From IMG/VR virus record IMGVR_UViG_2563366840_000004: DNA of 10,407 bases; one strand, written 5' to 3'. A program made the translations under genes and the position numbers. This DNA is from a virus. Its lineage: Duplodnaviria; Heunggongvirae; Uroviricota; Caudoviricetes. Below are positions 3 to 921 of this stretch, in pieces. The notes beneath the pieces were generated by a model. The model was not told the origin of the DNA and made no database searches. It worked only from the letters and a program-made list of their open reading frames with translations. The stretch's first letter is position 1, and each line of letters starts with the position of its first letter.

Positions 3-95
3 GGCGAAGCGTGGGGAACGTTACATGCTCTGCTGGCGGATATTAATAGTCAGGGTCAGGTGCAGATGGCGATGAACGGCGGCATCTATGATGAA
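3..95 (+). pseudogene. Open reading frame fragment running into IS1 IRL (possible 3'-truncated gene interrupted by IS1)
   Basis: Frame 3 is open across 3-95 (GEAWGTLHALLADINSQGQVQMAMNGGIYDE) and is cut by the IS1 end at 96. The other two + frames contain stops. No start is visible and identity is unknown. Confidence 0.25.
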
Positions 96-118
96 GGTGA
101 TGCTGCCAACTTACTGAT
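96..118. repeat. IS1 left terminal inverted repeat (IRL)
   Basis: GGTGATGCTGCCAACTTACTGAT at 96-118 is an imperfect inverted match to the reverse complement of 841-863. Confidence 0.9.
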
Positions 119-150
119 TTAGTGTATGATGGTGTTTTTGAGGTGCTCCA

Positions 151-426
151 GTGGCTTCTGTTTCTATCAGCTGTCCCTCCTGTTCAGCTACTGACGGGGT
201 GGTGCGTAACGGCAAAAGCACCGCCGGACATCAGCGCTATCTCTGCTCTCACTGCCGTAAAACATGGCAACTGCAGTTCACTTACACCGCTTCTCAACCC
301 GGTACGCACCAGAAAATCATTGATATGGCCATGAATGGCGTTGGATGCCGGGCAACAGCCCGCATTATGGGCGTTGGCCTCAACACGATTTTACGTCACT
401 TAAAAAACTCAGGCCGCAGTCGGTAA
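151..426 (+). CDS. insA: IS1 InsA (transposition inhibitor, N-terminal part of InsAB' transposase)
   Basis: 91-aa [40 protein letters not shown]... with a Cys-rich zinc-finger-like N-terminus; recognised as IS1 InsA. Confidence 0.95.
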
Positions 427-848
427 CCTCGCGCATACAGCCGGGCAGTGACGTCATCGTCTGCGCGGAAATGGACGAACAGTGGGGATACGTCGGGGCT
501 AAATCGCGCCAGCGCTGGCTGTTTTACGCGTATGACAGGCTCCGGAAGACGGTTGTTGCGCACGTATTCGGTGAACGCACTATGGCGACGCTGGGGCGTC
601 TTATGAGCCTGCTGTCACCCTTTGACGTGGTGATATGGATGACGGATGGCTGGCCGCTGTATGAATCCCGCCTGAAGGGAAAGCTGCACGTAATCAGCAA
701 GCGATATACGCAGCGAATTGAGCGGCATAACCTGAATCTGAGGCAGCACCTGGCACGGCTGGGACGGAAGTCGCTGTCGTTCTCAAAATCGGTGGAGCTG
801 CATGACAAAGTCATCGGGCATTATCTGAACATAAAACACTATCAATAA
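345..848 (+). CDS. insB: IS1 InsB frame (expressed as InsAB' transposase after -1 frameshift from insA)
   Basis: 167-aa ORF in the -1 frame relative to insA, overlapping the insA 3' end; the sequence ...[21 protein letters not shown]...HYLNIKHYQ is recognised as IS1 InsB. Confidence 0.9.
402..408 (+). promoter_or_regulatory. IS1 programmed -1 ribosomal frameshift motif (A6C)
   Basis: AAAAAAC at 402-408 within TTAAAAAACTC near the insA 3' end, where the insB frame is open; this is the known IS1 InsAB' frameshift site. Confidence 0.85.
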
Positions 849-863
849 GTTGGAGTCATTACC
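841..863. repeat. IS1 right terminal inverted repeat (IRR)
   Basis: ATCAATAAGTTGGAGTCATTACC at 841-863; its reverse complement GGTAATGACTCCAACTTATTGAT is an imperfect match to IRL. Confidence 0.9.
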
Positions 864-921
864 CCACCTACACTGATTACCCCCCAGACAACAATATTCC
901 TACTCAATGAACAAATGACTA

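Follow-up and report, generated by a model that had tools for sequence, protein, structure and literature searches.

The window, that is, the whole stretch of 10,407 nt that was analysed, is contig 1 of scaffold KB732924.1 (GCA_000351905.1); it starts 95 bp before an IS1 element, and a run of N follows it. A fragment of the Escherichia coli gene yigE, an intact IS1 and the late tail operon of a P1-like phage-plasmid succeed one another along it (Table 1).

Table 1. Features of the window, with positions counted from its first nucleotide.
Feature	Position	Strand	Basis or remark
yigE', internal fragment, nt 194-288 of the 765-nt gene	1-95	+	Sequence identity; last 95 bp of the composite passenger
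9 bp left of IRL	87-95	none	TATGATGAA; single copy in native yigE; no second copy right of IS1
IS1 (IS1A type), intact, 768 bp	96-863	+	Reading of the window, ORFs, comparison with annotated copies
IRL	96-118		Left IS1 end, GGTGATGCTGCCAACTTACTGAT
insA	151-426		ORF within IS1
insB frame	345-848		ORF within IS1
IRR	841-863		Right IS1 end, ...ATCAATAAGTTGGAGTCATTACC
9 bp right of IRR	864-872	none	CCACCTACA; first bases of P1-like DNA
simC-pmgC intergenic remnant with LPsit	864-962	+	P1 annotation; L028 1801 corresponds to window 864
Late promoter LPsit	913-931		-22 region 913-921, -10 at 926-931
pmgC	963-1529	+	P1 late gene
tub	1540-2151	+	P1 late gene
pmgB	2166-3047	+	P1 late gene
sit, injection transglycosylase / tail ruler, 1130 aa, SLT domain	3129-6521	+	PF01464, P1 annotation
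118-aa ORF	within 6518-10407	+	Among P1 baseplate/tail genes
Gp6/gp47-like baseplate protein	6874-8307	+	P1 baseplate gene
gp16	8304-9143	+	P1 baseplate/tail gene
Tail-fibre R	9222-9656	+	P1 tail gene
Tail-fibre S, start only	9668-10407	+	Cut by scaffold gap

The length of the IS1 and its imperfect terminal inverted repeats, which agree at 18 of 23 positions, are those of the IS1 family (about 768 bp, with ends of about 23 bp). The insA and insB' frames are arranged as for the synthesis of InsAB' by frameshift; the gene caller returned a transposase of 232 aa, with the Pfam domains Zn_ribbon_InsA, HTH_Tnp_IS1 and DDE_Tnp_IS1. The element shows no mismatch to IS1A copies in complete genomes (e.g., both arms of the composite transposon described below in L016, L020 and L021), and the IS1A copies identical to it carry an annotated programmed frameshift.

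A simple IS1 insertion is flanked by a direct target duplication of 8–9 bp. The earlier note had reported that this IS1 lacks one, and both its coordinates and its flank sequences proved exact: the flanking nonamers have nothing in common, and there is no repeat at any offset. Misplaced element boundaries, which had been named as a possible source of error, do not account for this, as no direct repeat of 7–10 bp was found across the IS1 with either boundary moved by up to 4 bp, and comparison of the 30-bp flanks gave no common word longer than 4 bp. The absence of the 8–9-bp duplication leaves the identity of the IS1 unaffected, and would follow from its position in a composite element together with a deletion, as argued below.

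The left flank is a piece of yigE, which encodes a protein of the phosphodiester glycosidase family (Pfam NAGPA on full-length YigE). Window 1-95 matches 5,303 of the 5,426 complete E. coli genomes, with 2,229 records at 99% identity or more, and the native site (L006 4001-4095, a K-12-like chromosome) is uninterrupted, TATGATGAA being followed directly by AGCTATGCG... The truncated open reading frame that had been seen to run into IRL is thus yigE'; its frame continues into the IS1 and ends at a TAG (120-122) after eight IS1-encoded codons. A “hypothetical protein” annotated to the left of such IS1 copies may be recognized by the same token as a yigE fragment.

The complete operon noted beyond IRR is the late sit operon of P1 with its promoter LPsit. 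Window 864 lies 49 bp upstream of LPsit (equivalent positions: L001 6001, L002 2826, L003 13942), and window 864-968 is identical to phage P1, to which identity is 98.2% over window 864-2000; plasmid pTHO-010-4 is 100% identical over window 864-2967. The gene order pmgC-tub-pmgB-sit-gp16-R-S, the high identity and the identical LPsit region place this flank among P1-like phage-plasmids, in agreement with its matches in 509 complete E. coli genomes, nearly all of them on plasmids of 80–120 kb. The Pfam families PF21379, PF26903, PF26881 and PF03406 were found across the baseplate and tail stretch (6518-10407). In intact P1-like plasmids the DNA around the junction is contiguous (...ATCCCTCATT followed by CCACCTACACTG..., with CCACCTACA next after ...ATCCCTCATT), and the empty site, ...CCCTCATT then CCACCTACA..., is unbroken. 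The earlier note had envisaged an uninterrupted homologue in which the left and right flanks adjoin; instead, each flank has an intact site of its own, in yigE and in P1-like plasmids, respectively. By sequence identity, the two flanks come from different replicons and were never neighbours.

Two further observations concern the P1-like part. A perfect 11-bp inverted repeat with a 13-nt loop (CTCGTAGAATC...GATTCTACGAG, window 922-956), identical in phage P1, overlaps the -10 of LPsit and lies within the pmgC leader. At the other end, the contig breaks after the start of S into a gap of at least 6 kb, and its last ~120 bp (10289-10407, the 5' part of S) have two further matches in a related IMG/VR contig (L008 1237-1443), at 100% and 87.5% identity; a repeated tail-fibre segment might explain the break.

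The junction between yigE' and IRL recurs in identical form in 171 of the 5,426 complete E. coli genomes (200-bp probe, matched over its full length), mostly on chromosomes and away from native yigE, and sometimes on plasmids. In those records it is the inner side of one fixed unit that consists, in order, of IS1 in the minus orientation, 98 bp, corA, ysgD, the first 288 nt of yigE, and IS1 in the plus orientation. This composite is 3,242 bp long, and both of its IRR ends face outward. Complete copies occur in 143 of the 5,426 genomes, in numerous settings on chromosomes and plasmids; the DNA beside them includes gspC, rclC, rhsB, ynbB, fimG, a NACHT gene, genes of prophages (among them tail genes) and the backbones of plasmids. 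The window holds only its right arm and the last 95 bp of its passenger. In a plasmid of strain ATCC 98082 the unit occupies L003 9622-12863, of which window 1-863 corresponds to the right end, and a perfect 9-bp duplication, GTCATATGG, brackets the whole composite; the empty site of this insertion, with GTCATATGG present once, within ATTATCGTCATATGGAATAAC, is found in the intact P1-like records L001 and L002. In strain EcPF16 the composite is bracketed by another 9-bp duplication, GATGTTGCC. Judged by these duplications and by the unrelated sites it occupies in relatives, the composite moves as a unit. Because IRL adjoins passenger DNA, no duplication is to be expected across the single arm in the window; any duplication would be located beyond the other arm, off the start of the contig.

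A duplication around the composite is present in two of the ten contexts examined and absent from eight, which suggests that IS1 adjacent deletion or IS1–IS1 recombination is frequent at its arms; both are documented as frequent causes of missing duplications (PMC11708052). The outer flanks of the composite (L016-L023, L004) are sometimes derived from different genes, such as glcA on one side and gspC on the other, or ydbL and ynbB. The first 98 bp of the passenger (L003 10390-10487), which lie beside the left IS1 and downstream of corA, are unlike the spacer between corA and yigF in the K-12-like reference; capture from a background other than K-12, or remodelling, may explain this. No description of an IS1-corA element was found in the searchable literature, and the corA composite is apparently both widespread and unreported.

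The ATCC 98082 plasmid (NZ_CP034659.1) is the only complete record in which yigE'-IS1 lies beside this part of P1. Its composite interrupts P1 simB and is oriented like that of the window, and alignment of the two gives an exact correspondence in two blocks: window 1-863 with L003 12001-12863, and window 864-10357 with L003 13942-23435. The window thus lacks exactly 1,078 bp (32.7% GC) that adjoin IRR in the ATCC 98082 plasmid. This segment contains the 3' portion of simB, the whole of simC and P1-P3pmgC, which are predicted sigma-70 promoters. Compared with the ATCC 98082 form, the IS end is intact and the sequence resumes downstream in the same orientation, as is characteristic of an adjacent deletion. 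The window IS1 differs from the right arm in the ATCC 98082 plasmid at three positions, and window 864-3184 likewise shows three mismatches to that plasmid; of the 512 P1-like records, only 39 reach 99% identity or more to the window 864-1600 query. Beyond window 3185 the P1 backbone is 2–5% different from that of ATCC 98082, so that direct descent would require later recombination among P1-like plasmids; divergence of this order fits the mosaic recombination that is usual among them. The 454-kb ATCC 98082 plasmid is itself a mosaic in which F-like tra genes, genes of chromosomal origin (malT and a fragment of rtcA), IS26 and IS1 accompany a large P1-like block; here a P1-like element is embedded in a conjugative plasmid.

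The left junction of this insertion, simB' with GTCATATGG running into IS1, is also found in plasmid CP061756 and in four IMG/VR contigs, which are 99.6–99.98% identical to one another; in CP061756, IS26 follows yigE' where the right arm would be. A P1-like lineage with the insertion therefore circulates, and its right side has been rearranged more than once.

The simABC genes constitute one of eight variable, low-GC regions of P1-like phage-plasmids (PMC9603915). At the simABC position, loci L029, L031, L034, L035 and L037 (8757-9942) carry unrelated genes, among them those for a 215-aa protein with a faint PTP-like phytase match and for a YfjT-family protein, which confirms that cargo is exchanged in the slot upstream of LPsit. 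A different IS1 variant (94.7% identical) lies in the ETEC1720 plasmid (L007 5001-5768), its right end 64 bp upstream of the position of the window junction; it has no duplication, and 2,465 bp, from ant to upstream of LPsit (L001 3472-5936), have been lost. IS1X2 copies in other P1-like plasmids (records H64-H65) have right ends ~159 bp upstream of the same position. LPsit is kept at the ETEC1720 junction and, by arithmetic, should be kept at the IS1X2 junctions also.

Junction probes were compared with several collections. In IMG/VR, the simB' left junction gave four matches and the window-type right junction one, and there were none for the right junction of the ATCC 98082 type, for the left junction of a simple plus-orientation IS1 insertion at CCACCTACA, for a left junction that joins CCACCTACA to the IRR end of IS1 (as expected of an independent composite or of a simple minus-orientation insertion), or for the right junction of a simple minus-orientation insertion at simB. 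Besides this one IMG/VR contig, the junction of IRR with CCACCTACA occurs in two metagenome contigs, one ENA gut-metagenome contig with four similar places, and one Logan assembly (together L008, L009, L010, L025 and L026; IMG 3300030379, ERZ773108, ULRG01, ERZ919709 and SRR640032). Neither the 5,426 complete E. coli genomes nor PLSDB nor the phage set contained a simple IS1 at exactly this P1 site, and the GTDB species-representative genomes yielded neither the right nor the left junction. A homologue search with the SimB'-IS1 fusion protein (55 aa) gave no exact match, contigs spanning the IS1 that were sought via PmgC proved to be only long contigs with other contexts, and among the sequences compared no one sample links the simB' left junction to the window-type right junction.

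From these comparisons, we consider it probable, with some reserve, that the window IS1 is the right arm of a corA-yigE' composite in a P1-like phage-plasmid, and that, once the composite had inserted, adjacent deletion by IS1 took away simC together with the 3' part of simB and spared the late operon. The passenger corA-ysgD-yigE' would have been captured from an E. coli chromosome between an IS1 in the minus and an IS1 in the plus orientation, and the composite would then have transposed into the AT-rich, non-essential simB of a P1-like phage-plasmid, with duplication of the 9 bp GTCATATGG around the whole element. Subsequently, the outer (IRR) end of the right arm could have attacked a site 1,078 bp further on in the same molecule; such an intramolecular transposition would delete simC, along with the 3' part of simB and the sigma-70 promoters predicted for pmgC, retain the IS1, and join IRR directly to CCACCTACA without a duplication, the deletion end point being window 864. 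The product would be identical if a second IS1 had instead inserted at CCACCTACA and the two direct copies had then recombined. We infer, accordingly with the same qualification, descent of the window from an insertion like that of ATCC 98082; the left arm would lie upstream of the contig start, and the outer left junction would read TTATCGTCATATGG joined to GGTAATGACTCC, with simC absent. The superimmunity genes of P1 are non-essential, and since LPsit and the late tail operon are intact, the deletion would have cost only superimmunity genes.

The same right junction might have arisen by independent transposition of the whole composite into the simC-pmgC spacer of P1, with no deletion and with CCACCTACA duplicated ~3.2 kb upstream, off the contig, where the left junction would then read CCTCATTCCACCTACA joined to GGTAATGACTCC with intact simABC on its left. 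Such an event would be in keeping with the mobility of the composite and its 9-bp duplications, with an AT-rich target (35% GC) in a variable region of P1-like plasmids, and with the departure of the P1 backbone from ATCC 98082 beyond 3.2 kb. However, two hits in the same orientation within 1.1 kb on near-identical local backbones would be needed, and the predicted left junction, CCTCATTCCACCTACA followed by GGTAATGAC..., has no match in IMG/VR, against four for the simB junction. Given the variability of simABC and the other IS1 junctions 64 bp and ~159 bp away, a second independent hit there is not very improbable in itself; we nevertheless regard this origin as unlikely. Homologous recombination between a solo IS1 that a P1-like plasmid carried at CCACCTACA and the right-hand IS1 of a composite elsewhere (on the chromosome or another plasmid), by which the phage-plasmid would be fused or integrated, appears quite unlikely too. 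IS1 abounds (as many as 40 or more copies were counted per record), its copies are near-identical, recombination between them is a documented cause of missing duplications, and the eight of ten composite copies without a duplication indicate that arm rearrangements are common; moreover, the scaffold, at 141 kb, is longer than the P1 genome, and P1 DNA is present inside the 454-kb mosaic plasmid of ATCC 98082. Against this, the P1-like records of the 5,426 complete genomes, PLSDB and the phage set contain no solo IS1 at the site, the left junction expected from a simple IS1 insertion at CCACCTACA (CCTCATTCCACCTACA joined to GGTGATGCTGCC, i.e., ...CCACCTACA then GGTGATGCTGCC) is absent from IMG/VR, and the likeness to the ATCC 98082 arrangement would be left as a coincidence. 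The SNP patterns of IS1 were uninformative as a test for a recombinant element, since the window IS1 is the same as many other copies.

An assembly artefact, in which a real yigE'-IS1 junction and a real IS1-P1 junction were mis-joined across a collapsed IS1 repeat, has to be weighed because the linkage of yigE', IS1 and P1 through the 768-bp repeat is provided by one short-read draft contig. That contig starts exactly 95 bp before the IS1, an overhang that we take to be K-1 for the K=96 graph of ALLPATHS-LG, and all other assemblies with the IS1-P1 junction break inside the IS1. Yet module, P1 region and orientation are the same in the ATCC 98082 plasmid, a complete and independent sequence, CP061756 also has the composite in P1 simB, and wrongly paired composite arms would still leave the P1-adjoining IS1 as a composite arm; a mis-join is accordingly improbable. 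An old simple insertion whose duplicated flanks have diverged by point mutation would account for the absence of a repeat, and for that only, but the flanks are 100% identical to unrelated sources for which the uninterrupted sites are both known. This explanation was rejected, the flanks being yigE and P1-like DNA and not decayed copies of one another, and its probability is close to nil.

The three causes that the earlier note had listed for the missing duplication thus fare differently: adjacent deletion is the best supported for the right junction, with 1,078 bp missing from IRR onward, recombination between IS1 copies retains the low probability given above, and divergence of an old insertion fails on the unrelated flanks. 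The main reason had escaped it, namely that the DNA on the left belongs to the passenger of a composite. The lack of a duplication is here ordinary IS1 behaviour, as both mechanisms are well known, and a missing IS1 duplication points, in textbook fashion, to a composite element, an adjacent deletion or IS–IS recombination.

Adjacent deletion by intramolecular IS1 transposition is known classically from DNA beside IS1 in the gal region and on R plasmids. The window resembles those cases in that the IS1 ends are intact, one flank is unchanged, the other restarts downstream in the same orientation, there is no duplication and the target is AT-rich. It differs from them in that the ancestor is deduced from the plasmid of another strain and the acting IS1 would be a composite arm, and in that the deletion, of a mere 1,078 bp, ends before an essential late promoter is reached.

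Composite transposons flanked by IS1 include Tn9 (cat) and Tn1681 (heat-stable enterotoxin). Like these, the corA composite has two IS1 copies around a passenger, moves as a unit and generates a 9-bp duplication around the whole; unlike them, it carries a housekeeping segment of the chromosome (corA, ysgD and the 5' part of yigE) and not a resistance or toxin gene, and its arms are inverted, with IRR outward. Tentatively, we propose that IS1-corA-ysgD-yigE'-IS1 is an undescribed and currently active element. Through its movement, E. coli chromosomes and plasmids (~3% of complete genomes) would gain an additional corA, the core gene for the Mg2+/Co2+/Ni2+ channel, and a P1-like phage-plasmid would have received one too, the window possibly being a phage-borne copy after IS1 deletion of non-essential superimmunity genes. 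The wide distribution of the composite and its presence on a P1-like phage-plasmid merit recording in their own right.

With respect to phage P1 (Punavirus), the window shows 98% nucleotide identity, full synteny of pmgC-tub-pmgB-sit and the tail genes, and an identical LPsit region. Rearrangements of P1 by IS1 are known, and the resident IS1 of phage P1 lies elsewhere (isaA-isaB), whereas in the window simC and the 3' part of simB have given way to IS1 and chromosomal cargo. The locus would thus provide a worked example of a P1-like phage-plasmid that gains chromosomal cargo (corA) through an IS1 composite and is then trimmed, with its late operon kept.
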